Source: Escherichia phage anhysbys
Sequence record: NC_052656.1
Direction: 5' to 3' (one strand)
DNA: 64,000 nucleotides
The position numbers and the translations under genes are program-made. This document shows, in pieces, positions 10,016-45,774 of this stretch. Under the pieces are notes generated by a model. It was not told the origin of the DNA. It did not search any database and was given only the letters and a program-made list of their open reading frames with translations. The first letter of the stretch is position 1. Each line of letters begins with the position of its first letter.

Positions 10016-10294
10016 TTAAAATGGTTCGTTAGTCTCCATCATATATTCTGCTTCTAGTTCTTCCATGTGCTTTCTAAATTGGAAAGCAATTTCTGCTACA
10101 GTTACATTTAAATCTTTTTCAAAAACTTCTGTAGAGCCTTCATAAAAACGAATACCGTCAATTAAAAGCCCTCCGTGGTAATCCCAATCACTTTCACGAG
10201 AAAGCGGGTTAGGCTCTTCATAATAGTAATCCACCTCCACGACTAAGGCTTTCCCGTTACGAGTGGTGTATTCAAAATCAAAAGTGTTAATCAT
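10016..10294 (-). CDS. Hypothetical protein
   Basis: 92-aa ORF. Confidence 0.35.
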   Translation of the reverse strand: MINTFDFEYTTRNGKALVVEVDYYYEEPNPLSRESDWDYHGGLLIDGIRFYEGSTEVFEKDLNVTVAEIAFQFRKHMEELEAEYMMETNEPF

Positions 10295-11238
10295 TATAGC
10301 TCCTCAAATAAAAGTCTACGACGCTCATTCAACACATCAATGTGATAATGAGTCCTGACATACTTAGCTAATGCTAATCCTTTCTCCATGCAAACATCGG
10401 GAGCACTTAATAAGTATTCCGTAATATCTTTCCACTCGGAAGGTGTTTCAGCAAAGAATAACAAATCTTTAAACTCTTGTGTATGATAATTCTCACGAGG
10501 AGAACAAATCAAAGGTAAACCCTTAGCACCTGCCTCAAGAATTTTAAGATTGCTTTTTGCATTATTAAACACGTTATCAATCAATGGCGCAAGACTGACT
10601 TGATGACCATCGTAAGATTCCATGTAGTTGGCATATGGTCTTACACCTTCATAAACACAAGTTGGTGCTACATTTTCTCTGATTACAGACCATTCACGAC
10701 TACTTAAAACTTCAGAATCCCTACGAAAACCACATATTGTAAGATCTTTACCAAAATCGGGCAAGATAGCCAAATCTTGTTTATGTGTTTCACTTCCAGC
10801 CCAGACTAATGGAGTTTTGGAGTAGCGATCACGGGTCAACACAAATTGACCTTCATCGTAAGGAAGTCCATTAGGGATTATGTGCACATTATCATTGTAT
10901 TGTGAAAGTTCAACTTGCAAAGCAGGTGTCGTAGTTGTAACAAGATCGCTATGCTCTAAAAACCATTTTAAATGTTCACGAATACCTGATTCAAAAATAC
11001 CTTCTAACATGTGTCCTTTTGGAATGACTAAAGAGTCATCCAAATCCATAACCATTTTAAAGCCTAGGTTTTTAAGGGCTAAAAAGCCCTCTTTACCTTT
11101 TGTTGGCACCCCGTTAAAAACGAAAACGTTGTGTTTAGGTTGTGAAGAGAACTGCCTTGAGTAAGGCAGCACTACCCTATGGAAATCGCAGACACTATAA
11201 TTGATTCCGTTACGATTGTCAAGAATTATTTGTCCCAT
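10294..11238 (-). CDS. Glycosyltransferase (GT-B, family 1/4-like), paralog A
   Basis: C-terminal NLKILEAGAKGLPLICS motif; paralogous to next gene. Confidence 0.5.
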   Translation of the reverse strand: MGQIILDNRNGINYSVCDFHRVVLPYSRQFSSQPKHNVFVFNGVPTKGKEGFLALKNLGFKMVMDLDDSLVIPKGHMLEGIFESGIREHLKWFLEHSDLVTTTTPALQVELSQYNDNVHIIPNGLPYDEGQFVLTRDRYSKTPLVWAGSETHKQDLAILPDFGKDLTICGFRRDSEVLSSREWSVIRENVAPTCVYEGVRPYANYMESYDGHQVSLAPLIDNVFNNAKSNLKILEAGAKGLPLICSPRENYHTQEFKDLLFFAETPSEWKDITEYLLSAPDVCMEKGLALAKYVRTHYHIDVLNERRRLLFEEL

Positions 11239-11245
11239 ACTTCAC

Positions 11246-12193
11246 CTACAAACTTTCAATAACCTGGCGTCGCAACTCGTTTGCATCTGCCAGATTGTAA
11301 TGTGTTCGAACATGTTCAGCCAAGAACAAGCCACGATCTTCCCGATAGTTTGGATTGCGAAGAAGCTTAACAATTTCGTAATGCCATTCTGCTTTATTCT
11401 CTGCGTAAGTAACAGCACGAGCATCTACAGGGTTAAAATAAGGTAATACCTTAGAACAAACAATTGGAATACCTTTTGCTCCAGCTTCCAGGATTTTGAG
11501 ATTACTTTTACAATTATTAAAATCATTATCTACCAAAGGAGCTATAGCAATAGCATGACTTTCGTAAACACTCATGTAATTATCTAAATCTTTTACAGCG
11601 GCTTTATATTTGGCATTTGGTAAATTTCTGCGAATCTTAATCCATTCTTGTCCCGTGATGCTCTGTGATGCTTCATATCCCGCAATAGTAAGAAGTTCAT
11701 CATCGAAAGTATTAGAGACTAGTCGTAAATCTGGCTCGTGACTAGCACCGCCAGCCCATACAACAGGGGTACCGGATGAACGATCATTTGACAAAGTGAA
11801 TTGTCCACTATCAAAAGGAAGTGCATTTCGGATCACAACAACATTCCTATTTAAGTGACGGATCTTATATGCCAAATATTCTGTAGTCACAATAACCACA
11901 TCAGCAAGCTTAACCATAGCTACAATAGCATGAGTGTTTGACTCGTATAGACTTGCTAAATAATGTTCTGGATTAAGTTGGTAGAAATCATCTAAATCTA
12001 CAACAATCTTAACACCTTGACGTTTCAAAGATAAAACGTATTCTGCACCTTTAGAGTGGATACGGTTAAACACAACAACATCTTTCTTAGGTTGAATATT
12101 ATTGTTGTTAAAAGGTATAACAATACGATGATAGTCACAACCGCTATGAGGTTTTGCATCAATTTTTAGTTTAGACCATTTTTTATTTGACAT
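11246..12193 (-). CDS. Glycosyltransferase (GT-B, family 1/4-like), paralog B (start moved to ATG 12193 with GGAGG RBS)
   Basis: VVWAGGASHEPDL and NLKILEAGAKGIPIVCS align with paralog A. Confidence 0.5.
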   Translation of the reverse strand: MSNKKWSKLKIDAKPHSGCDYHRIVIPFNNNNIQPKKDVVVFNRIHSKGAEYVLSLKRQGVKIVVDLDDFYQLNPEHYLASLYESNTHAIVAMVKLADVVIVTTEYLAYKIRHLNRNVVVIRNALPFDSGQFTLSNDRSSGTPVVWAGGASHEPDLRLVSNTFDDELLTIAGYEASQSITGQEWIKIRRNLPNAKYKAAVKDLDNYMSVYESHAIAIAPLVDNDFNNCKSNLKILEAGAKGIPIVCSKVLPYFNPVDARAVTYAENKAEWHYEIVKLLRNPNYREDRGLFLAEHVRTHYNLADANELRRQVIESL

Positions 12194-12866
12194 GTGCCAG
12201 TGCCTCCTCATAGGAAATTCGGATTTTCCCATTTTTAATATCCTCTAAAGATGCTTTATATTCTTCCCAGTTAATCCCGATAGCAGCTTCTTTCTCTTCT
12301 TTTGTCAGGTTAGCAAAAGGCATAGGATTGTTTCCAAAAACATCGTCTGGGTGGATATAAGCCATGATACGAAGTGGACAAGGTGTTGCCTGAATACCAT
12401 GATTCAAACCAGCAGCTTTCAAACGGTGTCCCCATTCAGCATCTTCAAAACCATAGCCGTGAGTGTAAGGGCGGAAATAACCCATCTTCTCAACAACGGC
12501 ACGAGAATACATTGCAAATTGACACATTGCAAGTTCCCAGAGAATAACTTCTCCTTTGCTTCCAACAACTTTATCTTTGAAGTACTCCGGCATACCAAAG
12601 AAATCCCATCTTCCAGAAACAGCTTGATCTACAAAGTATGTTTCCCATCCTTCCATGACTGGGTAGCAATCGTCGTCAAAAATAAACCAATAATCATAAC
12701 CTTCTTCATAAAACTGGTGCATAAGTTCATTCCTGGCATAAGCTACACCTTTACGGTCTGGATCGTTGAATACTCGAAAATCTGCACGTGGATCTGTTAC
12801 AAGGTAGTCTTTAAGTGGACGGACACCTACAGTGATAACACCCACTCCGATTTTAATATTTTCCAT
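12183..12866 (-). CDS. Glycosyltransferase-like (GT-A type, DxD motif)
   Basis: FIFDDDCYP acidic motif. Confidence 0.4.
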   Translation of the reverse strand: MENIKIGVGVITVGVRPLKDYLVTDPRADFRVFNDPDRKGVAYARNELMHQFYEEGYDYWFIFDDDCYPVMEGWETYFVDQAVSGRWDFFGMPEYFKDKVVGSKGEVILWELAMCQFAMYSRAVVEKMGYFRPYTHGYGFEDAEWGHRLKAAGLNHGIQATPCPLRIMAYIHPDDVFGNNPMPFANLTKEEKEAAIGINWEEYKASLEDIKNGKIRISYEEALAHVK

Positions 12867-12874
12867 TTTCTCTC

Positions 12875-13438
12875 CTAAATAGTTTTACTGTGATCGTGAC
12901 AGTGTAATAAATGATGTATAGACCGTTGAGGATTTGTTTGACCTAATCTGTAAATGTGAAATAGATACATTCCCCGCATCAATCCTAACCTCTTTCCTTT
13001 TTCATGTAAAGTGCGAGAGAAAATTAAGTCGAATTGGATAGATTTTTCTTCGAAAGGAATTTCATTCCACAAGGATTTTCTAAAAAGCAAAAAGAAACCT
13101 GCCAGAGGTGTTCCGAAAGGAACTTCTTCAACACTCACTTTATGATATTCTCTTGCAATCTTAGCATATTCTATATGGTTTAGAATATCTGGATCATCGT
13201 TAATTTGGTTAGAGAAAAGCTGATAACCACTGCCTAACCTGTTACAAGTTGCACCTATTACATCAAAAGGTGGGTTTGACATAACAAGCTCTTCAAGCAT
13301 AGATGGTTGATCAGGTAGGAGGAACATTGTATCGGTATCTCTTAAACACACCCAACTATCATCTGGAAGAACGGCAATGGCTTCATTGATAGCCTTGCCG
13401 ATATTTCCTGTCAGATAGGGAGTAATATAATAAATCAT
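12875..13438 (-). CDS. Putative glycosyltransferase-like protein
   Basis: CLRDTDTMF acidic motif; adjacency to three glycosyltransferases. Confidence 0.3.
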   Translation of the reverse strand: MIYYITPYLTGNIGKAINEAIAVLPDDSWVCLRDTDTMFLLPDQPSMLEELVMSNPPFDVIGATCNRLGSGYQLFSNQINDDPDILNHIEYAKIAREYHKVSVEEVPFGTPLAGFFLLFRKSLWNEIPFEEKSIQFDLIFSRTLHEKGKRLGLMRGMYLFHIYRLGQTNPQRSIHHLLHCHDHSKTI

Positions 13439-13902: not shown

Positions 13903-14201
13903 TCTACAGCATCATGAGTCCTTGCAAAACGCTCCCACAACACAGCATCTACTTTAAGAACCATACAAGGATAAATACTGTCGTTGATCATGTCAATGCT
14001 ATATTTATCTACATCCTTTTCATCTTCCATAAACAAAGTAGCGTATGCTTCTAAATGCTTACGGGTGTAGTATACATCCTCTTCAGTAAGACCGACAACC
14101 AGGTAACTTGCTACAACAACAGTATTATCTTCTTGCATTTTAACTCCCCTTTGGTAGATAGAAACCATGCACTTTATCTCGATAAACAAGACGCATATCA
14201 C
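13854..14201 (-). CDS. Hypothetical protein
   Basis: 115-aa ORF. Confidence 0.3.
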   Translation of the reverse strand: MICVLFIEIKCMVSIYQRGVKMQEDNTVVVASYLVVGLTEEDVYYTRKHLEAYATLFMEDEKDVDKYSIDMINDSIYPCMVLKVDAVLWERFARTHDAVECSAVMSQNNILGEIH

Positions 14202-14661
14202 GTTCCCAGTGTGTCCTTATATTCCGTTTCTTGAAGTATAGAGCACCTTTAGTAACATCTAAAACAGACCGCAATTCAGGAAAATGTTTCTCTAAATAAA
14301 GTAAACGCTCCGCTATTGCTTTTGCTTCCTGCCACTTATCTTTCTCTGTTACGTTAAAAGTTTTCGCATATGAGAATTGCCCTTTCTGGAACAAGACTCC
14401 TCTGACTGTGTTAGGGAAGTAGGTATCGTTTCTTCTGTTGATTACCACATTCCCAACGGCATTCATTCCTTTTTTACCCAGACCGCGACCTTCTGCGTAA
14501 ATTGCACAAGCTAATAGAATTTTATCATTATATTGCTTTGTACATTTGTGAACTACTTTAGCGGTTTTTACGTTTGCAGCTTCGGCTTTCGCCACAACAG
14601 GTGTAAATGTAAAAGCAGTTAAGGATAGTAACGCAACTGTTACAAAGTTTTTTATCAGCAA
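14140..14661 (-). CDS. Secreted cell-wall hydrolase (SleB-like), TTG start
   Basis: Signal peptide LIKNFVTVALLSLTAFTFTPVVAKA; motif CAIYAEGRG...NAVGNVVINR...FPNT...QFS; RBS AAGGAGG. Confidence 0.55.
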   Translation of the reverse strand: MLIKNFVTVALLSLTAFTFTPVVAKAEAANVKTAKVVHKCTKQYNDKILLACAIYAEGRGLGKKGMNAVGNVVINRRNDTYFPNTVRGVLFQKGQFSYAKTFNVTEKDKWQEAKAIAERLLYLEKHFPELRSVLDVTKGALYFKKRNIRTHWERDMRLVYRDKVHGFYLPKGS

Positions 14662-14760: not shown

Positions 14761-15363
14761 TTATGGACATTCATACCATTCTTTTTTACCACCGAAGGCC
14801 ATCACCACATCACAAATATCCAGACCAGCTTTACCTACACCATATGCTTTCAGCTTCCATTCCCCATCTTCACGAACCAAGGAAGCCACGTGGCAGATTG
14901 TGTTGCCAGCCACTTCAGGAGCCAGGAAGTCAAAATCCAGAATTTCCACATTGCGCTCGGAGTCGAAGATTTTAAGCATACCTTCAGAAGCATGACCAAA
15001 ACGTTTCAGACCTGTATCATCATCAATGGTCAGAACAAAGGCAATCTCTTGTGCATCAGGGGAGATTTTAGCCAGAGTAATATCAATCTGCTCCATGCTG
15101 CCAGTTCCATCACGAACATCGTCACCAGCGAAGGTAGAACGTTCAGGATCAAACTTGTTAGCATAGCAAACCAGGTGACGTGCAGACAGCATTTCAGGAT
15201 TGCCAGCGGCATTATGACGACAAACCAGTGCACTTACATCCAGATCCAGTTTAGAATCAGATTTCCAAGAGAATTCCAGGCGCAGTTCTTTCAGAGCCGG
15301 AGCAACTTTCTTCAGGGAAATTTTTTCGCTAGAGCCTTTTTTCAGGGAAATTTTATCAGTCAT
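14761..15363 (-). CDS. terD: TerD-domain protein
   Basis: TerD-like core FAGDDVRDGTGSMEQIDITL; N-terminal duplicated EKISLKK. Confidence 0.65.
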   Translation of the reverse strand: MTDKISLKKGSSEKISLKKVAPALKELRLEFSWKSDSKLDLDVSALVCRHNAAGNPEMLSARHLVCYANKFDPERSTFAGDDVRDGTGSMEQIDITLAKISPDAQEIAFVLTIDDDTGLKRFGHASEGMLKIFDSERNVEILDFDFLAPEVAGNTICHVASLVREDGEWKLKAYGVGKAGLDICDVVMAFGGKKEWYECP

Positions 15364-15378
15364 CTTTTGTCTCCTCTA

Positions 15379-15648
15379 TTATTTAAGTGTAATACCAGTT
15401 ACAGTCAATTCTACTTCCAAAAGCTTAGATGTGTTTTGGATTGATACTAATTGTGCATGATGGTTTAGTTCTACAGCAGAACAATCATTTTCCCCATCAT
15501 CTACTTTTAAATAAACAATGATTTCACTAAGGTCTAAACCATTTTCGTCAAATGCATTTTCATAGACGAAAGTATCTCCTACATCCAAATCTTTAATGGT
15601 AAGGCATCGTTTATTTACTTTTTGCTCATCAATTTCGAAGTTTAACAC
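15379..15648 (-). CDS. Hypothetical protein, paralog of 16670-16948
   Basis: Shared KDLDVGxTF ... VTGITLK pattern. Confidence 0.4.
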   Translation of the reverse strand: MLNFEIDEQKVNKRCLTIKDLDVGDTFVYENAFDENGLDLSEIIVYLKVDDGENDCSAVELNHHAQLVSIQNTSKLLEVELTVTGITLK

Positions 15649-15877
15649 TTCTTCCTCCTAATGTTATCTCCGGTTTGTATATACGAAGAATTATAGCATT
15701 TTCATTTTCTTTGTCAACCCACTCTTCATAATCGGGCCATACATGAATCTCTACTCTACTTACAACATCTTCCATTCGCACAGTCCCAATGAAATACTCT
15801 TTGAGACTGCGCATAATGAAAGCTTCTCTCTCGCGCCAATAATTTTCTACGACTTGAGAGGCAAGCTCGTCGATCAT
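15629..15877 (-). CDS. Hypothetical protein
   Basis: 82-aa ORF. Confidence 0.35.
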   Translation of the reverse strand: MIDELASQVVENYWREREAFIMRSLKEYFIGTVRMEDVVSRVEIHVWPDYEEWVDKENENAIILRIYKPEITLGGRSVKLRN

Positions 15878-16668
15878 TTTTTAGCACCTACTTTAACAAC
15901 CCACTCTCCGAACTCTTCAGATAAGAGTTTGTCATAAAGCTCTGAATCTGTCAAGTCTAAATCTTTAATGCCAATAAAACCAACATTATCATAAGCATTT
16001 GCCAGTTCTTTCAGGAAGCCAAACTTCTCATTACCAACGCCAACCATGAACCAATAAATAGGTTTATTCTTATTCTCTTCAATAAGACGACGAACAGCAC
16101 TAGGATCACCATTCTCACCATCCGTCTGGAAGAATACAACACCAGGGGTAACGTCAGCACCTGGTTCAGACACAGCTACAATCTTTTCACGCTCTACAGA
16201 TACTGTTTCAGTTTTACCAAGCAGACGATTAAAGAAGCCTTTCTTTGGAGCCTCCTCTTGTACCACTTGTTTAGTGGTAATATATTTGGTAACAGTGCCA
16301 AAATACTCATCGTAGATATCTGCCATTACAGGGGCGTAATTTGTTCCACCTCCGATACGAACATTACGCATACATTTACCAACATAGTCATCGTAAACGT
16401 CTGCTGTTGCTGGAGTAAGCTCTTGAGAACTCGTATTGAAGGCCCACATGTCAATTTGTTCATTATCGTCGAACAGCATACCAAAAGGAAGCAGTTTACC
16501 TACAAAATCACTCACTACCCCACGAGCATATAAACCATGCATACTACCAGAAATATCTAGAGCACATGCTACACGAAGAACAATCTTACCTTCGTTCAGG
16601 TTCTTATTCTTTTTCAGAGAGAAAGCAAGGTTTTCTTGACGTTTTTTCAGGCTGATTTTCTCGGACAT
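15874..16668 (-). CDS. von Willebrand factor A domain protein (TerY-like)
   Basis: MIDAS motif LDISGSM; N-terminal SEKISLKK shared with TerD gene. Confidence 0.6.
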   Translation of the reverse strand: MSEKISLKKRQENLAFSLKKNKNLNEGKIVLRVACALDISGSMHGLYARGVVSDFVGKLLPFGMLFDDNEQIDMWAFNTSSQELTPATADVYDDYVGKCMRNVRIGGGTNYAPVMADIYDEYFGTVTKYITTKQVVQEEAPKKGFFNRLLGKTETVSVEREKIVAVSEPGADVTPGVVFFQTDGENGDPSAVRRLIEENKNKPIYWFMVGVGNEKFGFLKELANAYDNVGFIGIKDLDLTDSELYDKLLSEEFGEWVVKVGAKK

Positions 16669-16669
16669 A

Positions 16670-16948
16670 TTATTTCTCCTTCTTAAGTGTAATGTTGGTA
16701 ACTTCTAAATCTACTTCCACCATATTTGTATCTGGTGGGATGCAATGAGTATAGCCTCGTTGTGCTAGTGATCCATTAATACAAATCGCACTGTTTGTGG
16801 AATTTTTAATGAACACCAAGTTACGGTAGGTATCCAACCCTGCGTCTTCATAGGCATCATAATACATGAATGTGGCCCCTACGTCAAGATCTTCGAAAGC
16901 AATAGGTAAATCCTGACTTTTTTCTTCTTGAATATTGAATCTAAACAC
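16670..16948 (-). CDS. Hypothetical protein, paralog of 15379-15648 (GTG start with GAGGAGG RBS)
   Basis: EDLDVGATFMYY ... VTNITLK. Confidence 0.4.
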   Translation of the reverse strand: MFRFNIQEEKSQDLPIAFEDLDVGATFMYYDAYEDAGLDTYRNLVFIKNSTNSAICINGSLAQRGYTHCIPPDTNMVEVDLEVTNITLKKEK

Positions 16949-17504
16949 GCATACCTCCTCTACCAATTTTGAAGCCCAAATCGTAAGCTTCCTTAGTGAT
17001 CTTTTGTAACTCACTTATAGGAAGTGTTACAAGAGGATCATCTTCTTCAATTTCCATCTTGTCATCTTCTGTTTCAATGAGAGTATTATGCACTTTGTGA
17101 TAAGGGTTGTCAACACGTTTAAACTTATTCTTTTCTGTGCTGAAAAAACAATCTGGATCTTCTTCACCATCACCCCAACCTTGGTTAGGATCTCCGTCAG
17201 ATTGTTCTGTAGGGATTTCACCTGTAAAGTACTCTTCCAGCACCATAGCGATACCGTCCCTTGGATTTGAGGAATGCATCAAATCACAAACCTTACTCCA
17301 ATCCATAGCCCATTCAAATCGTTCACGAACACCATTTTCATCCTCCTTTCCAGAGAAAACACAACCATAACTATCATAGTTCCCATACATCTCTTCAATA
17401 ACAACACCGTCCTTCAAAAGAAAGAGGTAGCAAGGTGATCCGTCGAAAGAAGTAGAAAGGGCAGCTTTGCCCGATTCTTTGCACAAAAAGCTAAAACAAC
17501 CCAT
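16941..17504 (-). CDS. Hypothetical acidic protein
   Basis: 187-aa ORF. Confidence 0.4.
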   Translation of the reverse strand: MGCFSFLCKESGKAALSTSFDGSPCYLFLLKDGVVIEEMYGNYDSYGCVFSGKEDENGVRERFEWAMDWSKVCDLMHSSNPRDGIAMVLEEYFTGEIPTEQSDGDPNQGWGDGEEDPDCFFSTEKNKFKRVDNPYHKVHNTLIETEDDKMEIEEDDPLVTLPISELQKITKEAYDLGFKIGRGGMRV

Positions 17505-17902
17505 TACAAACCCTCCTTCAGATTATCAAGAGCTACAGTGGTTTCACAAAATTCTCCATAAGCTTTATGATGTTCCAGAAAAGCTTCGGGTCCACCCCAA
17601 TCATTATCTTGTGTATTCCAGCCATCAATAAAAGCATCTTCAATGATTGTGATCAGTTCCTGTCGAGTCAGCGTAATGGTATCAGGTTTCTGCGTAGTTT
17701 CCACACGGAACCCTGGTTCTTCATAAAAACCTTTAGTTACAATGGACTCTAACTCTTCTGCATCACAGAGGAAGTAGCCACAAAGATAACACCAACCGTC
17801 ATCATCTTTCATTACTTCATAAACTTCACCACTTGCCAAATTAGTGAAAAGAGTAGGGTCTGTTACTGTAAGTTTTAAAAGAATACCTGTTGGATTATAC
17901 AT
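17504..17902 (-). CDS. Hypothetical protein
   Basis: 132-aa ORF. Confidence 0.4.
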   Translation of the reverse strand: MYNPTGILLKLTVTDPTLFTNLASGEVYEVMKDDDGWCYLCGYFLCDAEELESIVTKGFYEEPGFRVETTQKPDTITLTRQELITIIEDAFIDGWNTQDNDWGGPEAFLEHHKAYGEFCETTVALDNLKEGL

Positions 17903-18067
17903 CTTCTTCCTCCTCTAAAATATGGAACCCGTAATTACAATAATCCTGAAAGGTTTCGTGTGCAAGATCTTCTATATCCTCTTGAGACATATCATCTTCA
18001 ATTTCGATATCCACAACCTCATTGCATCCACACCAAGCAGTTTCAATATTCACTCGTAATATTTTCA

Positions 18068-18265
18068 TTACTCCTCCTCCTCATTGAAGTCAATATCTGC
18101 AAGGAGTTCGAATTTACGGAAGTTACGACAACCTTCATAAATATAACAATCACGACAAACTGCTAGAACACTTGGGGGATATATACCTCCCATCGGTGCG
18201 AATCGTTTTTCGTCATCATAACGGACACCAATGTCTTCATCAATTATATAGATACGGATTCTCAT
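18068..18265 (-). CDS. Hypothetical small protein
   Basis: 65-aa ORF. Confidence 0.3.
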   Translation of the reverse strand: MRIRIYIIDEDIGVRYDDEKRFAPMGGIYPPSVLAVCRDCYIYEGCRNFRKFELLADIDFNEEEE

Positions 18266-19374
18266 TTACCAAGCCCTCGTTTCACAGCAGCTACCATCCC
18301 GTCTTCCAGAGATTGAACTTCATTAATATAATCAACACGAGCAGCACGGGCTTCCGTATTGATGCGGTTAGTTTCTTCCAGCATCTTAACCAAGTTTTCC
18401 TGATCGTGACGCAGAGTTTCAATATCCAACACTTGACGGTTAGCCAGTGCTGCTGCTTCGATCTGATTCTGTGTGGCAAGATCGCTACCCAGTTTAATTG
18501 CCAAGTTAAATTCATCAAGAACGTTATTCTGCGTCTCTGCTGCTTTCATTTGACGTAAGCTCTCGATATACATTGAGAAGTTAGCAGAGTAAGCAGGAAT
18601 AACATTATTTACTATGTTACGCGCAGATCGCATTAAGCTTGCAGAAACTTTTTGCATACCTTGTACACGCGGTCCCATTTGGACACACAGTAGGCGCAAT
18701 GCTTTTAAATCTGCAATACGAATCTCCAAGAGATCCAAAGTATCTCGGATCACTTGTCGCTGTTCTACTGCATCTTCTGGAAGAGCAGCCAAAGCTTGTT
18801 CTTCTTTTTCATAGGTTGCTGTTAGAAGCTGCATATCTCGGTTCAAACTTGCAGCATATTGTCCAATAGCTTGATGTAGCTTTTCAAGATATACCAAGGA
18901 ATCTTCTTCTTTGCGAATATCCATTTGAAGGTTCTTTACCAACTCTTCAATACGGTTATTAACATTATCAAACTCCCCGAACAGGTCTTCTTTCATACCC
19001 ATAACTTTTTTAATGAGTTTAGTAATACCTTTGCTTTGTTTAATAGAGTTTGGATCAAGTTGTTTTGCCTGTTTAATCAAAGCTGTGAGTCGTTCACTCA
19101 TCTGATCGCCTTGATTACTACGTTGATGTTTTAACACCTCGGCATTCAAGGAACGCAAGGTTGTTCCTGCCTCTGCCCCAATCTCTTCGATCTCTTGTCG
19201 GGTCATAGAAGGCAAAACTGGAACTTCTTGCGGTGCCGCTGGTGCATAAACAGGACTGGCATCTAACACGCTTGGAGCGAATACAGATTTACTTGCATCT
19301 GTTGTTGCAGCAAATACGCTCATTTCAGGCTTCTTCTGACCGCCAGTAGCTGCTTTTAAAAATGGACTTGTCAT
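18262..19374 (-). CDS. TelA-like (toxic anion resistance family) coiled-coil protein
   Basis: 370-aa alpha-helical protein; family assignment by overall resemblance only. Confidence 0.45.
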   Translation of the reverse strand: MTSPFLKAATGGQKKPEMSVFAATTDASKSVFAPSVLDASPVYAPAAPQEVPVLPSMTRQEIEEIGAEAGTTLRSLNAEVLKHQRSNQGDQMSERLTALIKQAKQLDPNSIKQSKGITKLIKKVMGMKEDLFGEFDNVNNRIEELVKNLQMDIRKEEDSLVYLEKLHQAIGQYAASLNRDMQLLTATYEKEEQALAALPEDAVEQRQVIRDTLDLLEIRIADLKALRLLCVQMGPRVQGMQKVSASLMRSARNIVNNVIPAYSANFSMYIESLRQMKAAETQNNVLDEFNLAIKLGSDLATQNQIEAAALANRQVLDIETLRHDQENLVKMLEETNRINTEARAARVDYINEVQSLEDGMVAAVKRGLGK

Positions 19375-19961
19375 TCTTCATTCTCCTCTTCTGCATCTCT
19401 TATATATGGTGAAACACCGTACTCTTTAGCTACTTTAACCCAATCGTCCCATTTATACAACCATAATTTTCCTTCGGTCCCTTCTTTATCTGATTTCAAC
19501 CACATATTAGGTTGCTTACCTGGGTACATGCGATTAGGTTTACGATTATAACCTCTAACACATCTTGTCGCAAACCTATCTACCAGAACAAGAACATATT
19601 TATACTCGTGGTTCAACGGCTCTTTGGAAGTGGCTTTAGGATTAGCCCCTAATTCTGCTGCCAGTTTTTGCCAATGAGCACCGTGCCTACTAAACTTACC
19701 CATACAACCATCAATAGCATGAGCAATTTCGTGCTTCATTGTATCCACGATCATATCTCTTGTGGAGTTCTTATGCAAGTGCCAATTTACAACAACAATT
19801 TTATCTCGGTAGTTGCACCAACCGAAAGAGTTATTCACTTTGTTTCTAACACAAGCTTTATATCCTGCTTCACGTAACATGCTGTAGTAAACAGGAAAAT
19901 CTTCTTTTATTTCCTGCATCACTTCCCACCACAAGAGTTGCAAGTCTCTCTCGGTATGCAT
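19371..19961 (-). CDS. SprT-like zinc metallopeptidase
   Basis: MKHEIAHAIDG ... HGAHW (HExxH ... HGxxW). Confidence 0.45.
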   Translation of the reverse strand: MHTERDLQLLWWEVMQEIKEDFPVYYSMLREAGYKACVRNKVNNSFGWCNYRDKIVVVNWHLHKNSTRDMIVDTMKHEIAHAIDGCMGKFSRHGAHWQKLAAELGANPKATSKEPLNHEYKYVLVLVDRFATRCVRGYNRKPNRMYPGKQPNMWLKSDKEGTEGKLWLYKWDDWVKVAKEYGVSPYIRDAEEENEE

Positions 19962-19964
19962 AAC

Positions 19965-20558
19965 TTACACCTTAAAAGCGAAATGCGTGGTCGTGGCTTC
20001 AAAATCAGGACCAGATAAACTTGCACTGAAATCTGAAATATTTGTAATTAAAAAGCTTTTATGCATACCTAACACAGCCACGCTTTCAATATCTTCTACT
20101 AACATTTCAATCATGTTAGAAACATGACTGAACGTATAGTTTTGTTTTTTGATGGTGTAGAAAGAAAGACTCCCACCTGCTGTATAAGATACCTCTTCAA
20201 AATCTTTAATCGTATATTGTGTGCCATCAGTAAAGAAAATGGTAGCTTTATTAGTAGCACGTTTCTTGTTTTTTGGTCCTTTTTTACGTTTACTGCGAGT
20301 AGGCAAACCATTTGGAAATACTGTAGCTACAAATTCTTCAGGAGAAACCTCCTTACCGAAATCATAACCGTAAGAAACAGCGTCTATAAACTCGTCGTCT
20401 TCATTTTTAAAATAATGAAAATAGGGCCAATTTGAGAGATTATCGAGCATCTTATGCTCATCCACAGCAGAGAACGTATCCCTCAAAGCACGTGTGATTT
20501 GCAAAGCATTAGGCAAACTTTTAACACCTGTAATGGAAGTACGAATAGAAATTGTCAT
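19965..20558 (-). CDS. Hypothetical protein
   Basis: 197-aa ORF with basic patch KRKKGPKNKKR. Confidence 0.4.
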   Translation of the reverse strand: MTISIRTSITGVKSLPNALQITRALRDTFSAVDEHKMLDNLSNWPYFHYFKNEDDEFIDAVSYGYDFGKEVSPEEFVATVFPNGLPTRSKRKKGPKNKKRATNKATIFFTDGTQYTIKDFEEVSYTAGGSLSFYTIKKQNYTFSHVSNMIEMLVEDIESVAVLGMHKSFLITNISDFSASLSGPDFEATTTHFAFKV

Positions 20559-20572
20559 TGTTTTTCTCCTTA

Positions 20573-21010
20573 TTAACGTCGCTTGCTACGAGATGAACTC
20601 TTTTTACTTAAAGGGCTATTGTAAGATTTACGAGTTGTATAGCTACTATTTGTTTTAAAAGTTTGTCTCGGCTTTTCATAAGTTTTTATCTCTTGCTTAG
20701 GCTTACCATAAAAATTAGTTTTCGGTTTAGGTGTATTATAATGCTTATTAATAATCGTTCTGTTATCGTTATAATCCCCACTGTTACGATTACTACCACC
20801 ACTCATCATATGCCCTAACAACATACCTGTAGCAAACTCACCGACACCGCTACTACTAGAACCGCCACCATTGTTGATAATAGTTGTATCTCCGTCAGAT
20901 CCTTGTTGAGCGTATTGTTGAGGAGGTTGTTGGTATTGTGCAGGATTTGTTTCATCCTCGCAAGCTGTTAAAAAGATACAACCAATTAAAATCAGGGCTA
21001 GTTTTTTCAT
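20573..21010 (-). CDS. Lipoprotein, Gly/Ser-rich (start moved to MKKLALI)
   Basis: Lipobox LTAC after hydrophobic leader; RBS GAGGAA. Confidence 0.5.
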   Translation of the reverse strand: MKKLALILIGCIFLTACEDETNPAQYQQPPQQYAQQGSDGDTTIINNGGGSSSSGVGEFATGMLLGHMMSGGSNRNSGDYNDNRTIINKHYNTPKPKTNFYGKPKQEIKTYEKPRQTFKTNSSYTTRKSYNSPLSKKSSSRSKRR

Positions 21011-21193
21011 ATTTGCTTTCCTCATTTTGACTATTAATACACCTGTGTTTGAAATCTCCAGAGAAGCAATAAAGTTGCTCTCCATCTCGGTATAAACTCA
21101 CTTTACTGCCGTTGATTACGCTTGTCAATACAAAAATTACAACAAACAACCCTATTGCAAAACAAATATTTTCAAACACAACCAACAAGTATT

Positions 21194-21544
21194 TCATTTT
21201 AAAAATACCTCATCATCAGTTTCATTATCCCAGAAGAACAAATCCCAACCATTCGGATCATTCCATTTGGCTGCTGGAGAAGTCCATATTTGTTCGATAT
21301 CAATATTCAAAACTTCACCGTTTCGTTTTGAAACAGCTTTAGTTAATTCCCAACGAGATACAGGCTCTACTTCTCCTGAACCACTTCCACAACAAGCTAC
21401 AACATTAGGAGGCAAATTAATTGGATCTTTGGTCACAATCATAACGCTTACCCCAGGGTAAACTTTTGAAAGATAATCTAAAACGTAATCCACATCACCA
21501 GATAAATCCCAAATAAGTTCTTGAATTTCATCAAAATTATTCAT
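21194..21544 (-). CDS. Hypothetical protein
   Basis: 116-aa ORF. Confidence 0.4.
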   Translation of the reverse strand: MNNFDEIQELIWDLSGDVDYVLDYLSKVYPGVSVMIVTKDPINLPPNVVACCGSGSGEVEPVSRWELTKAVSKRNGEVLNIDIEQIWTSPAAKWNDPNGWDLFFWDNETDDEVFLK

Positions 21545-21561
21545 AAGTCTCTCCTATAAAA

Positions 21562-21579
21562 TAGCCTCCCGAAGGAGGC
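21562..21579 (-). terminator. Hairpin downstream of terC
   Basis: agcctcc-ttcg-ggaggct then U-rich auuuuau. Confidence 0.45.
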
Positions 21580-21586
21580 TCATCTA

Positions 21587-22561
21587 TTAAACAGCAGCTT
21601 CTTCTTTTTCAGGGAAGATAAAGCTTGCAATAACACCAAGAGCTAATGTGCCTAGAACAATCATCAGACTTACGTTAGGGGAAATATCATGCGGGAGGAA
21701 TGACCATTTGGCATGAAGTGTTTCACCGAACGGGTGATACATAAGTTTAGCACCGACAAACACCAGAACCACAGCAACAGCTTTCTCTAAGTGAACCAGA
21801 TATTTCACAGCTACACTTAACACAAAGAAAAGTGCACGTAAACCAAGAACAGCCATCAGCATTGCAGAATAAACTAGCAGAGGTTCTTGTGTCACACCGA
21901 TCACAGCCGGAACTGAATCAAAAGAGAAGACAATATCTGTAAGCTCAATAACAAACACACAAAGAAGAGCAGGAGTTGCATATTTAATACCATTCTTAAT
22001 GGTGATGAACTTTTCACCATCCAGTGCATTGTGCACAGGCAGAACTTTACCTACTAAACGAACAGCCCAATGCTTAGAGTAATCAATATCCTCTTCTTCG
22101 TCACCACCTTTGATGATAGCCACGGCAGACCAAGCTACAATCAAACCGAACAACACTTGGACCGACCAATGAAGGTTAAACAAAGCGGTCCCTGCTGCAA
22201 CAAAAATACCTCGGAAGACAATGGCTCCTGCAATCCCCCAAAGTAAAATCTTATGTTGGAGATGTGTGCTCTTAATTCCAAAGCTTGCAAAAATTGCCAT
22301 GAACACCATCAGGTTATCTACAGAAAGACTCTTTTCCAACACATAGCCACTTAGGAAAAGCGCGGCAAACTCTTTACCATGTTCTACCCAAATGAATGCG
22401 TAATACCCTAAAGCTAAAGCAATCCAAAAAACAGACCAAAGCAAAGCAGATTTAATTCCAATTTCTTTATTCTCTTTATGACCAAAGAAATCGATACCAA
22501 TAGACAATGCCAAAATACCAACTAAAACAACTACATCAATAATTGGGAAACCGAGTTGCAT
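21587..22561 (-). CDS. terC: TerC-family integral membrane protein
   Basis: Multiple TM helices; EKSLSVDN motif. Confidence 0.65.
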   Translation of the reverse strand: MQLGFPIIDVVVLVGILALSIGIDFFGHKENKEIGIKSALLWSVFWIALALGYYAFIWVEHGKEFAALFLSGYVLEKSLSVDNLMVFMAIFASFGIKSTHLQHKILLWGIAGAIVFRGIFVAAGTALFNLHWSVQVLFGLIVAWSAVAIIKGGDEEEDIDYSKHWAVRLVGKVLPVHNALDGEKFITIKNGIKYATPALLCVFVIELTDIVFSFDSVPAVIGVTQEPLLVYSAMLMAVLGLRALFFVLSVAVKYLVHLEKAVAVVLVFVGAKLMYHPFGETLHAKWSFLPHDISPNVSLMIVLGTLALGVIASFIFPEKEEAAV

Positions 22562-22578
22562 TCTTTTCTCCTCTCTTT

Positions 22579-22637
22579 GCGGGGAACTATTCCCCGCTTC
22601 ATGTGATACATCTTACTCTTTTTAAGAACTGTGTCAA
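22579..22637 (-). promoter_or_regulatory. Promoter plus 5-prime stem-loop cassette (same type as in the 44-54 kb array) driving terC
   Basis: Minus strand reads TTGACA-16-TAAGAT-gtatcac...gcggggaatagttccccgc-aaagagaggagaaaaga-ATG. Confidence 0.55.
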
Positions 22638-22874: not shown

Positions 22875-23348
22875 TTAAAGTTTATAAATAGTCACATCGT
22901 GACCTGTTTTTACTAAAGTTTCTTCAATCATCACTTGGATGATAGCCCAATTACCTCCAGCATATCCAGCGCCAATCATAGGTAAGCCGATCTTACATTT
23001 TTGGTCACGGAGAAGCAAATCGTTAGCCATAGCTATTAGTGCATCGTAAAGTGCATCATAGTCCAACTGACGACCTTTAGCATTATATCCGTAACGGTAT
23101 TGCCCGTATAGATTATATACCAAAGGGTCTGATTGTTCGTCTGGCACCCCTAAACTAAAAGAACCTAACTTACTTTGATCACCAGCCATTGTGTCTAAAT
23201 CTGCCGCATATGCATAAGGGAATGCTCGTTTAATTTGCGGAGCAATTCCTGCTCCCATATTACACATACAATTGCAACAATGAGCAATAACAGTTACTTC
23301 ACCTGCTTTAGCGGCATCAATAAGATTACCTGTTTTCGTTTTAAGCAT
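22875..23348 (-). CDS. Macro-domain protein (start moved to ATG 23348 with AAGGAG RBS)
   Basis: VIAHCCNCMCNMGAGIA and GLPMIGAGYAGG resemble macro-domain ADP-ribose binding motifs. Confidence 0.5.
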   Translation of the reverse strand: MLKTKTGNLIDAAKAGEVTVIAHCCNCMCNMGAGIAPQIKRAFPYAYAADLDTMAGDQSKLGSFSLGVPDEQSDPLVYNLYGQYRYGYNAKGRQLDYDALYDALIAMANDLLLRDQKCKIGLPMIGAGYAGGNWAIIQVMIEETLVKTGHDVTIYKL

Positions 23349-23361: not shown

Positions 23362-24189
23362 TTACAAGATGTGTTGTTTTGTGTAACGATCCAAGAATTC
23401 AAAGTTTTCAGCATACTTTGAAATTCGGTTGTAACCTTCTCCCAAACATCCGAAGAAAAGTTGCTCTACATAGTAGTGTGGCAATTGGCTAAGAATGATT
23501 TTGAAGTCTTCGTGATTTTGGCCCATAAGATACTTAATAGGACGAACAAGGCACTGTGCATCACGTTCTTCATTAATCATTTTAACAAACGCTTCTGGTG
23601 TATTAATGTAGTTAAAATTCAGTTTAGCTTCGGTATCTGCTTGATTACCTTCATATTTTGCAAAATACAAGAAGTAAACATCATTTTTAACTTGATTTTC
23701 ATCAAGGATCTCAATCAGTTTGTCTTCATGAGTTCCAGTGATATTTACATCATCAATAAACACAAGCTTCTTATCACCCCAGAATTCTTTGTTGCAGTAG
23801 AATGTATCCCCATCAATAAGTTTCTTACGACTAGCTTTATCCAAGAAACCATAATCGTTGATATAGCTAACTTTACGATGAATAATATCCAGTTCTGCTG
23901 AACGACCTTGATCATATTGTGATTGCAACATATTAAAGTAATTAATAAAATGATCTGTCATCATTGTTGCAGCATTATGCACATGGTTGTAAGGAGAAGG
24001 GATGATAACAAATTGTTCCCCAATATGTTTCATTGCCACTTGAGCAAAAAACTGAAGTGCCAATTCTTTACCCATACGACGCGCAGCCTGGTTACTACCA
24101 AATTTCAATTTTGAATAATCTTTAATATCAAAAGTAGCAGTTTCCAGGTCATCAAATTTATTTGCAAAAATTTGAGTTTGATTACGCAT
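23362..24189 (-). CDS. Type I phosphoribosyltransferase-like protein
   Basis: PRPP-binding loop KKLVFIDDVNITGTH. Confidence 0.5.
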   Translation of the reverse strand: MRNQTQIFANKFDDLETATFDIKDYSKLKFGSNQAARRMGKELALQFFAQVAMKHIGEQFVIIPSPYNHVHNAATMMTDHFINYFNMLQSQYDQGRSAELDIIHRKVSYINDYGFLDKASRKKLIDGDTFYCNKEFWGDKKLVFIDDVNITGTHEDKLIEILDENQVKNDVYFLYFAKYEGNQADTEAKLNFNYINTPEAFVKMINEERDAQCLVRPIKYLMGQNHEDFKIILSQLPHYYVEQLFFGCLGEGYNRISKYAENFEFLDRYTKQHIL

Positions 24190-24838
24190 TTACAATTTCT
24201 CCTCTTTTAAGTTTCTCTAGTAAGTCGTTAGGGTTCTTAATATGACAGAAGTTAAATCCTAAGTCAACACATTTTCCATCATATTCTTCACTATCGCCTA
24301 CGTGCAATACTTCGTGCCCTAACAGAGGGATCGGAGAATACGTGAGCGTGCGAGCAAAGAATCGCGGATCTGGTTTACAAAGTAAAGCTTCATCCGAGAA
24401 ATGGGTGAACTCAAAACAATTCCAACTATCAAACTTACAAGCACGACGCAGGATATCCCCTGATATGAAGTTGGTATTGCTCTTAATACTCAAATCATAA
24501 CGCCCCGAAAGATACAGCAAGTACATCGGCAGATACACGGCTACGTGTGGTGGAAACTTAAGGAACCACTGTTCACACTCGAAACGAAGCTTTGCAGACT
24601 TCCAAGGCGTTATCCCAAGTTCAGAACCAAGTTTTTCCCAGGCGTATGCTGCACACTCGGCTTTGCCTTGAAGTGCTGCATTATCCAGTTCCTTTTTGAT
24701 CTTCTTATAAGCTGCTCTTGCTTCCACTTCCGTAATATCTCCATATTTTGCGATAGTCCAGGCTCGCATATCTGCGTAATTGGAGTTTGCTGTGATCAGT
24801 GTGTTCCATACATCAAAAGAGATATGTTTAATAGTCAT
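24182..24838 (-). CDS. HAD-superfamily hydrolase-like protein
   Basis: N-terminal FDVWNTL (motif I variant) and HVGDSEEYD (motif IV-like). Confidence 0.4.
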   Translation of the reverse strand: MTIKHISFDVWNTLITANSNYADMRAWTIAKYGDITEVEARAAYKKIKKELDNAALQGKAECAAYAWEKLGSELGITPWKSAKLRFECEQWFLKFPPHVAVYLPMYLLYLSGRYDLSIKSNTNFISGDILRRACKFDSWNCFEFTHFSDEALLCKPDPRFFARTLTYSPIPLLGHEVLHVGDSEEYDGKCVDLGFNFCHIKNPNDLLEKLKRGEIVNA

Positions 24839-24839
24839 A

Positions 24840-25445
24840 TTAAGCCCACCATGCGTCTAAGTTAAGATTACTGTCCACTACCACTTGTTCTATGTGGTAG
24901 CCTTTTATCTGTATCCCACTGTTCAAGAGCATATCATACGCTTCATTGAAACGCAACTTATCTTCTGCGGAATATAAGCGAGCATTATAAAATCGGTAAT
25001 CAATTTCTTCAGCATTAGAAGAAATACGGAAGAAGTTTGTTTCTACTTCGGGATCACTTGCTGAAGTCTTAATGTGAACTTCTCCGTAATTTTCTTTACT
25101 TAGATCCATGAAAAGAACACAGGCAACATGTTTAAACATTCGTTCCAGTTTGTAACGAACAACATTGAAACCTGCATTCTCAAGTTTTTCTACACACTGC
25201 AACATTAAAGTAGTGTCGAGATCGCTTTGATACTTTGTTAACATACGATCACGTTGAGACTTTGTATCCCGATGTAAATCAATTGTTGTGCATTTGGCAC
25301 CAATAATCTTAGCTGCTTTCATCAACTCTTCAGAACTAACGTTAGATAAAGTAAGATGAAAATGGGCTTTCCACACTTTTTTAGCAGGGACACCAAAAGA
25401 TTTATCCCCACTATTCGGCATGTTGACTACTACACTATGTTGCAT
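24840..25445 (-). CDS. Putative 2H phosphoesterase (LigT-like)
   Basis: Two HxT/S motifs (HLTL near residue 30, HIKT near residue 125) at typical 2H spacing. Confidence 0.3.
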   Translation of the reverse strand: MQHSVVVNMPNSGDKSFGVPAKKVWKAHFHLTLSNVSSEELMKAAKIIGAKCTTIDLHRDTKSQRDRMLTKYQSDLDTTLMLQCVEKLENAGFNVVRYKLERMFKHVACVLFMDLSKENYGEVHIKTSASDPEVETNFFRISSNAEEIDYRFYNARLYSAEDKLRFNEAYDMLLNSGIQIKGYHIEQVVVDSNLNLDAWWA

Positions 25446-44465: not shown

Positions 44466-44471
44466 AAAGTA

Positions 44472-44530
44472 TTGACAACAAACAACAACCTGATAAGATG
44501 TATCACATAGGGCGGGAAGTGGTTTCCCGC
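44472..44530 (+). promoter_or_regulatory. Promoter-stem-loop cassette
   Basis: TTGACA, TGaTAAGAT extended -10, hairpin gcgggaa-gtggt-ttcccgc. Confidence 0.6.
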
Positions 44531-44555
44531 TCGTAACAGAAGAGAGATTATCATC

Positions 44556-44828
44556 ATGGCATCATATAGCGCAACAATGATCGTAGCTGGCACAACTGGT
44601 AAACCTATGAGCGGTGGCGGATCTTTCGCTAATATCAACATTGACGGGCGTTTATCCCTGGACGCAGCGATCACCGTGGCGCGGGAAACATTTAAGAAAG
44701 AATGTAAATTCAATAAACAAGATTATCTCGGTTTCGCTATTGAAAAAACCGCGCGTTTTGTTGATTATAAAAGCCCAAAAATGGTTGATACTACACTAAA
44801 AGCGCAAGATGTAGCGTTTTTGCTTTAA
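44556..44828 (+). CDS. Hypothetical small protein (array gene)
   Basis: 90-aa ORF after cassette and RBS. Confidence 0.5.
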   Translation: MASYSATMIVAGTTGKPMSGGGSFANINIDGRLSLDAAITVARETFKKECKFNKQDYLGFAIEKTARFVDYKSPKMVDTTLKAQDVAFLL

Positions 44829-44831
44829 GGC

Positions 44832-44886
44832 TTGACATTAACGAATAATTTGTTAATATGTTACATAAAGCGGGAATAGTTCCCGC
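44832..44886 (+). promoter_or_regulatory. Promoter-stem-loop cassette
   Basis: TTGACA, TAATAT, hairpin gcgggaa-tag-ttcccgc. Confidence 0.55.
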
Positions 44887-44904
44887 TATTTGTAAGGTGG
44901 TAGA

Positions 44905-45162
44905 ATGTTTTACATCAAATTAAAAGGTCACGTGATCGCGTTCAAAGATAACGCTTTTTACAGATTAGCAAAATATGCGTTAATACATCCCCACTATGTT
45001 TATATAAGGGGGCGTGATGAAATAAATATCTTTGATCAAACAACATGCGAGAACATCGAGATCCGCAAGGTTGGCGTACGTGATTATCGTACATCTTTCT
45101 ACCCTTGCAAGGATTCAGCAAGTCTTTTTAAAGTATGCCAATTGTTGAAAAAAGGTGGTTAA
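44905..45162 (+). CDS. Hypothetical small protein (array gene)
   Basis: 85-aa ORF. Confidence 0.5.
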   Translation: MFYIKLKGHVIAFKDNAFYRLAKYALIHPHYVYIRGRDEINIFDQTTCENIEIRKVGVRDYRTSFYPCKDSASLFKVCQLLKKGG

Positions 45163-45163
45163 T

Positions 45164-45721: not shown

Positions 45722-45774
45722 CATATCGCCGCCACTGGCATAATATTTACCACGTAGGGCGGCAATGGTGCCGC
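45718..45774 (+). promoter_or_regulatory. Promoter-stem-loop cassette
   Basis: TTGACA-17-TAATAT, hairpin gcggca-atgg-tgccgc. Confidence 0.6.

Follow-up and report, generated by a model that had tools for sequence, protein, structure and literature searches.

A Ter gene cluster in the phAPEC8-like Escherichia phage anhysbys and the covariation of its TerD and vWA N-termini

Ter genes are common among pathogens and plasmids, and the inhibition of phages, resistance to colicins and fitness in the gut have all been linked to them. We analysed the Ter-like cluster of Escherichia phage anhysbys (sequence record NC_052656.1), which occupies positions 14761–22637 of a 64,000-nucleotide stretch of DNA, called here the window, and compared it with the described systems. 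The terZABCDEF determinant (IncHI2 plasmid R478, Escherichia coli O157) belongs to the plasmid Ter systems, which confer phage inhibition and colicin resistance, and also tellurite resistance. It shares the TerC and TerD families with the phage cluster, and its TerF supplies the vWA type. However, the phage has a single TerD, compared with five or six paralogs in the plasmid, and no TerB; it adds TelA, a component of the kilA/telAB determinant, and its vWA protein stands alone instead of being fused to TerD.

A general account of phage Ter systems, centred on jumbo phages, was given by Iyer et al. (2021; PMC7824862), who noted that ‘certain other related smaller tailed phages’ also have a Ter system. 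In that scheme a phosphoribosyltransferase (PRTase) and a HAD-type enzyme are assigned to the synthesis of a nucleoside-like signal, TerD binds ligand or metal, TerC is in the membrane and TelA and the TerF-type vWA protein act beneath it; phages were proposed to use Ter against superinfecting rivals. The same logic is found here in a 150-kb, non-jumbo coliphage: relative to the comparative-genomics definition (PMC7824862), the TerC/TerD/TelA/TerF-vWA core and the PRTase/HAD pair are present, and TerB is absent.

In the subfamily Stephanstirmvirinae, an explicit Ter/Tel gene cluster with a possible antiviral function was reported in 2021 for Klebsiella phage vB_KpM_FBKp34 (phiKp34, hereafter FBKp34; PMC8386662). 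As here, FBKp34 encodes TerC, a TerF-type vWA protein, TerD and TelA with PRTase_3 and HAD genes nearby, and its cluster adjoins nrdD/nrdG and a cell-wall hydrolase gene. It differs in gene order (TelA after TerD, PRTase/HAD downstream), in having two TerD genes, and in lacking the SprT-like gene, the small paralog family and the promoter/stem-loop before terC. The vWA and TerD proteins of the two phages are 40% and 28% identical, yet their TerC proteins are 88% identical. The Ter genes of phi92, also of Stephanstirmvirinae, were labelled in its 2012 annotation and flagged in a 2015 phage-cocktail study (PMC4690881), a 2022 paper considered those of phiPsa374 (PMC9796965), and GenBank records of Phapecoctavirus are already labelled TelA-like, TerC, TerD family and vWA-TerF-like. 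The finding is already known, both as a kind and as an instance; the N-terminal covariation and the selection results described below are what the present analysis adds to the known Ter clusters.

TerC, TerD, TelA and the TerF-type vWA protein were all found within 7.8 kb in a Pfam scan (Table 1). TerD scored 98.9 bits against its family (cut-off 25.3) over residues 5–179, that is the whole domain; the vWA protein scored 130.4 bits (cut-off 29.4), TelA 115.7 bits (cut-off 30; profile positions 13–327 of 332) and TerC 138.3 bits (cut-off 27.8). Four Ter-family matches, each with E<1e-27, inside 8 kb cannot be chance. TerC also passed the NCBIfam TerC/Alx model TIGR03718 (319.4 bits, cut-off 246.4, E 2.6e-95) and carries both paired membrane motifs of the xxDN/xxDS type, SLSVDN and FSFDSVP, identified by inspection. 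With the SprT-like protein (36.5 bits, cut-off 25.6), all five family assignments made earlier from the letters and translated open reading frames (ORFs) alone, hereafter the sequence-only reading, lay above Pfam's own cut-offs.

Structural comparisons pointed in the same direction. TerD, a beta-sandwich protein, aligned over its full length with the solved TerD structures 2kxt (Klebsiella, E 1.5e-15) and 3ibz; no solved relative of TelA was found by sequence. The AlphaFold model of the vWA protein (pLDDT, the per-residue confidence score, 88.9) matched integrin I-domains and copine-type vWA domains in Foldseek. Its metal ion-dependent adhesion site (MIDAS, DxSxS…T…D), which had been called intact, is indeed so: D38, S40, S42, T109 and D183 show little or no variation among 31 homologues, with D38, S42, T109 and D183 invariant. 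Residues 125–169 form an insertion modelled as a long two-stranded beta-arm with the tip KKGFFNRLLGK, conserved as GFFxxLxGK, in which G144 and G151 are nearly invariant; in this model the arm may serve as a membrane- or partner-contacting loop. Because the Pfam and NCBIfam matches exceed curated cut-offs, TerD matches a solved structure and the vWA model has fold matches, the locus is almost certainly the phAPEC8-type copy of a phage-borne Ter system.

The set had been described as complete. TerC, TerD, TelA and the vWA protein are present, but no Pfam match to TerB or to the TerZ/A/E paralogs was found on the cluster ORFs scanned, TerD being single, and the PRTase_3 and HAD genes at 23362–24838 had been overlooked. 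The PRTase_3 gene ends about 0.8 kb upstream of terC, beyond the limit of the region first considered; its phosphoribosyl pyrophosphate (PRPP) loop, read from the translation, is VFIDDVNITGTH. The HAD gene overlaps it by 8 nt and encodes the motifs FDVWNT and HVGDSEEYD (by inspection). The pair is adjacent to the Ter genes in phi92, KP13-26 and FBKp34, and PRTase_3 is also paired with HAD in Rhizobium and Brevundimonas phages. Among 50,697 phage records, 155 contain PRTase_3, and its counts per genus nearly equal those of the vWA protein, even where the two genes are far apart (PRTase_3 and vWA records, respectively: Escherichia 103 and 104, Klebsiella 10 and 10, Rhizobium 11 and 10, Brevundimonas 7 and 7). 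The Ter system of this phage thus extends to PRTase_3 and HAD, and is larger than previously considered.

The composition of the set bears on whether it gives literal tellurite resistance to the infected cell. The argument for this comes only from the names of the families and the labels in GenBank; the cluster has neither TerB nor the TerZ/A/E paralogs found in terZABCDEF, tellurite has no plausible ecological relevance to the lytic cycle, and the authors of the phiPsa374 study concluded likewise for their phage (PMC9796965). We consider tellurite resistance extremely improbable, and for phage therapy the ‘tellurite resistance’ labels in these genomes are not to be taken as a resistance-gene hazard.

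The recurrence of the Ter genes was assessed in 55 IMG/VR viral loci that encode a TerF-type vWA protein. Within 8 kb of it, TerC was found in at least 35, TerD in at least 35 and TelA in at least 25 of these loci; these counts, obtained with our own hidden Markov models, are lower bounds. The recurrent phage core consists of vWA, TerD and TerC, often with TelA. In phages of the alphaproteobacteria Caulobacter, Brevundimonas and Rhizobium, the four genes directly follow one another as TelA-vWA-TerC-TerD. TelA was found in 221 phage records, and the closest relatives of the vWA protein sit on phage-sized contigs.

The ratio of non-synonymous to synonymous substitution rates (dN/dS) was calculated against phiWec181, a phage of the same genus. 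It was 0.030 for TelA, 0.038 for the SprT-like protein, 0.054 for TerD, 0.059 for PRTase_3, 0.093 for TerC and 0.127 for HAD, compared with 0.074 for NrdG and 0.176 for the cell-wall hydrolase; synonymous sites are largely saturated, so these ratios are approximate. Judged from these comparisons, strong purifying selection on the core Ter genes (dN/dS 0.03–0.09) is unmistakable, so the phage makes use of them. The Ter genes could alternatively be dispensable cargo, inherited passengers with no role in lytic growth: variable small ORFs are interspersed in the cluster, its gene content differs between genera, and no phenotype was ever reported. However, the dN/dS values equal or beat that of nrdG, synteny is retained across genera although the vWA proteins are only 40–66% identical, and the hairpins around terC are conserved (see below), so that we regard cargo as very unlikely.

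A search of 5,426 complete E. coli genomes gave no nucleotide match to terC, and a recent capture of terC from E. coli was therefore rejected. The Ter genes are an old phage lineage and not a recent acquisition from the host.

The sequence-only reading had remarked that TerD and the vWA protein begin with a common motif, [ST][DE]KISLKK. The translations bear this out (MTDKISLKK in TerD, MSEKISLKK in the vWA protein), and the resemblance was found family-wide. Across the vWA family, a bacterial member included, no variation occurs at L7, K9, L18 and K20. The variable positions of the motif follow the cognate TerD: VIDLxK in a Brevundimonas phage, LSVEK in CcrBL9, MLDLTK/ELNLxK in phiPsa347, and AGINLxK or KFxL in metagenomic phages. 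A permutation test was performed on ten variable positions in 14 non-redundant viral lineages. The summed N-terminal similarity of cognate TerD and vWA proteins was 228, compared with a permutation mean of 100 (standard deviation 20; z 6.3). In 100,000 permutations the observed value was never reached. Cognate N-termini shared on average 4.1 identities, compared with 2.0 for permuted pairs.

Several explanations of this match were considered. First, matching residues of the two motifs in this phage use different synonymous codons (e.g. Ser TCC versus AGC), and recent gene conversion was therefore rejected; the match is maintained at the protein level. Second, the motif is not a free N-terminal tag: TerD–vWA fusion proteins retain hxLxK repeats internally, between the two domains, which indicates that the element belongs to the vWA module. 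Third, mimicry of the first beta-hairpin of TerD by the vWA N-terminus was unsupported, as AlphaFold predicts residues 7–20 of the vWA protein to be a helix (pLDDT 79–92) packed on its own domain. The most economical reading of these alignments would be co-evolution of TerD and the vWA protein through a common contact. More specifically, the hxLxK…hxLxK element might be a co-evolving coupling device, the two peptides binding either each other or one site on TelA or TerC; this proposal is tentative and, in our view, rather doubtful. If it were true, N-terminal coupling would physically join the cytoplasmic Ter proteins into one membrane-associated machine, and the co-varying element offers a concrete first hypothesis for Ter.

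The expression signals of terC were examined by promoter, regular-expression and terminator scans. The gene is preceded by a sigma-70 promoter, TTGACA-16-TAAGAT, at 22637–22610, followed by the conserved GTATCACAT and then by an 8-bp GC-rich stem-loop, GCGGGGAA-TAG-TTCCCCGC, at 22597–22579. The regular-expression scan located 12 instances of the same promoter and stem-loop on the plus strand at 44.4–52.2 kb, whereas the minus-strand block has only a single one with this stem; the aligned instances share a consensus. The identification of this element with that of the early array, made in the sequence-only reading, was therefore confirmed. The annotation of phAPEC8 labels the terC promoter as MEME-derived and host-dependent. 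In phi92 and KP13-26 an 8-bp stem of different sequence is found at the equivalent place, and the hairpin that follows the terC stop codon also has a counterpart with another stem sequence in both phages. All three signals, promoter, stem-loop and terminator, are thus shared by three genera, the stems having undergone compensatory changes, and the conservation of hairpins whose sequences differ argues for their function.

The early array itself (44467–52182, plus strand) comprises at least 12 copies of TTGACA-16-TAAnnT, GTATCACAT, an 8-bp GC stem-loop, a ribosome-binding site and an ATG. Variants of its stem keep their pairing (GCGGGAA/TTCCCGC, GCGGCA/TGCCGC and GCGGGGAA/TTCCCCGC). The hairpin may act by stabilising the 5' end of the mRNA or by binding a regulator.

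Co-regulation with the early genes, which had been ascribed to the whole cluster, holds for terC only, with its own promoter and its own hairpin terminator. The remaining genes, from orf116 to terD, are closely packed with overlaps of 1–8 nt and have no element comparable to the promoter and hairpin of terC. A perfect sigma-70 consensus with TG extension (TTGACA-16-TGnTATAAT, 12 of 12 positions) was detected by the promoter scan at 15717–15690, within orf82 and just upstream of paralog A and terD; this sequence may provide an internal promoter for terD.

The history of terC also differs from that of the other genes. TerC is 88% identical to its homologues in FBKp34 and KP13-26 and only 72% identical to that of phiWec181, whereas TerD, TelA, SprT and HAD show the reverse, being 90–94% identical to their phiWec181 counterparts. 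This pattern implies, at the level of sequence comparison, that a terC cassette has been exchanged between phages.

From family knowledge, and in line with the superinfection proposal of Iyer et al. (2021; PMC7824862), we propose that the cluster would act as a membrane-level exclusion or protection device in two steps, TerC coming first. TerC would be the earliest product and, once in the inner membrane, would transport Mn2+ or other divalent cations. In the second step TelA, TerD and the vWA protein with its MIDAS would assemble beneath the membrane, coupled via the shared N-terminal element, and the PRTase/HAD pair would possibly make a nucleoside-like ligand that tunes the assembly. The resulting change in the envelope and ion state of the infected cell would exclude superinfecting phages during the latent period and shield the cell against pore-forming or other envelope insults. 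The proposed role is of the same class as the plasmid Ter phenotypes, phage inhibition and colicin resistance, turned to the benefit of the phage. This role is plausible, at somewhat less than even odds; for the Ter identity and the exclusion/protection role combined in a single figure, we estimate a probability of about 0.5. The suggestion made in the sequence-only reading, manipulation of membrane or ion homeostasis or the countering of a host response, would be a reasonable one in the light of the same knowledge.

Metal handling would account for part of the same observations. According to this explanation, TerC would export Mn2+ as Alx does (or Ca2+/Zn2+), and so either supply metal to membrane-crossing phage proteins or adjust the metal levels of the cytoplasm to suit phage enzymes, while TerD and the MIDAS vWA protein would buffer or sense metals in the cytoplasm. 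Divalent cations are bound by TerD and by MIDAS domains, and both proteins have metal-binding folds. The phage TerC falls, above cut-off, in the Alx metal-homeostasis subfamily and, like E. coli Alx and Bacillus subtilis MeeF/MeeY, it keeps both DN/DS motifs; terC is early and expressed on its own, and a SleB-type hydrolase with an apparent Sec signal peptide is encoded immediately downstream of terD. TerC/Alx proteins are Mn2+ transporters, Alx being a Mn2+ exporter (PMC10197570), and TerC proteins metalate Sec-exported enzymes with Mn2+ (PMC10550928). However, this explanation leaves TelA and the PRTase/HAD pair unaccounted for, and no Mn-dependent phage enzyme was identified here. No yybP-ykoY Mn2+ riboswitch was detected before terC (no Rfam match at E<=1 across 13–27 kb); its leader of about 50 nt holds a simple hairpin only, and in place of the riboswitch of bacterial alx the phage gene has a constitutive early phage promoter. 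Furthermore, the calcium-site signature of TerD, GDNRTGEGDGDDE (GDN(R/L)TGEGDGDDE), is degenerate: it aligns here as GDD-VRDGTGSME, with three acidic positions replaced, a variant also found in phi92 and KP13-26. Metal handling as the function of the cluster is rather unlikely, but it is the main rival of the exclusion/protection role.

The genes on either side of the PRTase/HAD pair raise another explanation, a counter-defence island in which PRTase/HAD, a DarG-like macro-domain protein and orf201 would make or destroy nucleotide-derived molecules against host immunity (ADP-ribosylation or nucleotide signalling), the Ter genes being accessory or unrelated. The macro domain matches DarG models and could, from these matches, reverse DarT-type DNA ADP-ribosylation, which makes it a candidate counter-defence gene; its homologue adjoins NAD-salvage genes in phiPsa347. 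The orf201 product has an unexplained match to PADLOC models named AbiEi (5e-13). It has invariant H28-x-H30-x-T32 and E122-x-H124-x-K126 motifs and a dN/dS of 0.08, and is modelled as tandem ferredoxin-like halves. Yet macro homologues, noted in the phAPEC8 annotation, occur in PVP-SE1, rV5 and FelixO1, none of which is among the listed TelA/vWA matches, so that the macro gene looks independent and is probably not part of Ter. In addition, phi92 has no orf201, comparison of the orf201 fold with the PDB was uninformative, and PRTase_3 tracks vWA and Ter across phage genera. Since the macro gene and orf201 are distributed independently of Ter, this explanation is weakened, and we judge it quite unlikely. 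In phi92, the macro-domain protein is fused to an extra N-terminal domain. Structural relatives of the orf201 product are uncharacterised proteins of Acinetobacter phage ME3, Aeromonas phage LAh_8, phiM12 and several giant viruses.

Several points weigh against the exclusion/protection device proposed above. Exclusion would be of limited use to a virulent phage whose latent period is short. The vWA motif is modelled as a helix on its own domain and would not be a free docking peptide, and the calcium-site signature of TerD appears to be kept only in part. As terC is transcriptionally separate and part of a mosaic cassette, TerC may act alone. The PADLOC scan returned no Ter-related call, PADLOC having no Ter models, so that no defence-type call was possible. 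Our literature search yielded neither an analysis devoted to the Phapecoctavirus cluster nor an experimental test of a phage Ter gene, and the biochemical role of Ter is described as unresolved even in bacteria (PMC12054061).

The phage set is a stripped-down version of Ter: one TerD, one vWA protein, TelA, TerC and a PRTase/HAD pair, strongly selected. E. coli K-12 has, to our knowledge, no terD, telA or TerF-type vWA gene of its own. A compact set in virulent coliphages that grow on such a host makes deletion, swap and interaction genetics unusually clean; if the N-terminal coupling considered above is real, these K-12-plating phages would offer a minimal, tractable genetic model for Ter function.

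Table 1. Genes and signals of the Ter cluster and adjacent upstream region (positions in the window; aa, amino acids)
Feature	Coordinates	Strand	Basis and remarks
TerD-domain protein, 200 aa	14761..15363	-	PF02342, E 3e-28
Paralog A, 89 aa	15379..15648	-	phrog_11278, 2.6e-45; no Pfam family; lineage-restricted
orf82	15629..15877	-	phrog_22387; absent from phi92 and KP13-26
TerF-type vWA protein with MIDAS, 264 aa	15874..16668	-	PF10138 (vWA-TerF-like), E 1e-37
Paralog B, 92 aa	16670..16948	-	phrog_11278, 4e-51; 64% identical to phi92 gp174
orf187	16941..17504	-	phrog_14928; 76% identical to phi92 gp175; absent from KP13-26, FBKp34 and phiWec181
orf132, orf57 (DUF7167, slightly under Pfam cut-off) and orf65	17504..18265	-	patchy conservation
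TelA-family protein, 370 aa	18262..19374	-	PF05816, E 3e-33
SprT-like HExxH metallopeptidase domain protein, 196 aa	19371..19961	-	PF10263, E 5e-9; HEIAH
orf197	19965..20558	-	phrog_27550; C-terminal part conserved in phi92 gp179 and KP13-26
Lipobox protein, 145 aa, low-complexity, Q/G/S/K-rich	20573..21010	-	MKKLALILIGCIFLTAC; L-T-A-C lipobox by inspection
orf81 (small membrane protein) and orf116	20952..21544	-	conservation matrix
Hairpin with UUCG loop, directly after terC stop	21563..21580	-	terminator scan: 7 pairs, 5 GC; weak T-tract
TerC/Alx-type membrane protein, 324 aa	21587..22561	-	PF03741, E 3e-40
Early-type sigma-70 promoter and 5' stem-loop before terC	22579..22637	-	promoter scan, regular-expression scan, alignment
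Small membrane protein, 73 aa	22641..22862	-	phrog_16065; 54-60% identical in phi92 and KP13-26
Macro-domain protein, DarG-like	22875..23348	-	PF01661, 6e-5; PADLOC DarG, 5e-10; NCBIfam DarG, 3e-8 (below cut-off)
ComF-like phosphoribosyltransferase (PRTase_3)	23362..24189	-	PF15610, E 2e-41, full length
HAD-superfamily hydrolase	24182..24838	-	PF00702, 4e-4, and TIGR02252, 2e-8, both under cut-offs; motifs by inspection
orf201, conserved	24840..25445	-	membership in Ter system uncertain

The remaining genes of the cluster were compared in a conservation matrix of eight phage lineages. The SprT-like gene, the lipoprotein gene and the pair of short paralogs had been counted as members of the set; these genes are present as called, but they are lineage-specific and not recurrent Ter parts. 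The SprT-like gene was found only in Phapecoctavirus and close Klebsiella relatives (KP13-26 has one), and is absent from phi92 and FBKp34. Its product scored 21 against the NCBIfam SprT equivalog model (cut-off 175), and by this comparison it is classed as an SprT-like domain protein and not as an SprT orthologue. The two ORFs of about 90 codons that flank the vWA gene are true paralogs, as had been proposed (35% identity, E 2e-16, same phrog). Their family is represented twice here and once in phi92 but is missing from KP13-26 and FBKp34, and only seven homologues of paralog B were found in 5.8 billion proteins. Neither the SprT-like gene nor the paralogs occur with Ter genes outside this phage group.

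The call of a lipoprotein was upheld with a corrected start: the lipobox consensus [LVI][ASTVI][GAS]C, read by eye from the translation, is matched as LTAC, and the start lies at 21010 and not at 21085, as the conserved small ORF at 20952–21197 overlaps the longer reading. The protein is 36–37% identical to its counterparts in phi92 (gp180, annotated with a signal peptide) and KP13-26. Of the two short ORFs upstream, orf81 is conserved in phi92 and KP13-26, and orf116 only in FBKp34 and phiWec181. A search for hidden paralogy among the ORFs without assignment, including phi92 gp171 and KP13-26_227, revealed none beyond the known pairs. Most of the small ORFs, together with the SprT-like gene and the paralogs, are fillers among the Ter core that are specific to the lineage.

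All genes of the cluster are on the minus strand, at the coordinates of the sequence-only reading, as is every gene between about 1 and 36 kb. Over the 12 kb around the cluster, identity is 97–99% to Phapecoctavirus (phAPEC8-like, Stephanstirmvirinae), of which more than 60 phage genomes in GenBank match, and 60–80% to Justusliebigvirus (phi92-like) and related Klebsiella phages. Two helicases (one DnaB-type, one UvrD), the anaerobic ribonucleotide reductase NrdD/NrdG, four glycosyltransferases and a cell-wall hydrolase of the SleB type are encoded nearby; with such neighbours, the earlier placement of the cluster inside a replication gene block is fair.

Among GenBank records, the ‘Campylobacter’ phages B15, A110a and C3 and Acinetobacter phage vB_AbaM_ABPW7 are 98–99% identical to the coliphage analysed here or to phi92-like phages, and Pseudomonas phage PsgM04F carries the same cluster, with a TelA 90.5% identical. 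The host labels of these five records look doubtful.

The SleB-type cell-wall hydrolase gene (14140–14661, minus strand; PF07486, 2e-17) lies directly downstream of terD, a neighbourhood kept in phi92, KP13-26 and FBKp34. It has a TTG start, and its product has an apparent cleavable Sec signal peptide (…TPVVAKA/EA). Further on, four consecutive glycosyltransferase-like genes are found at 10294–13438 (minus strand), one of which (12183–12866, minus strand) weakly matches the TET-associated glycosyltransferase family PF20691 (E 0.001); these genes could serve DNA base or surface glycan modification.

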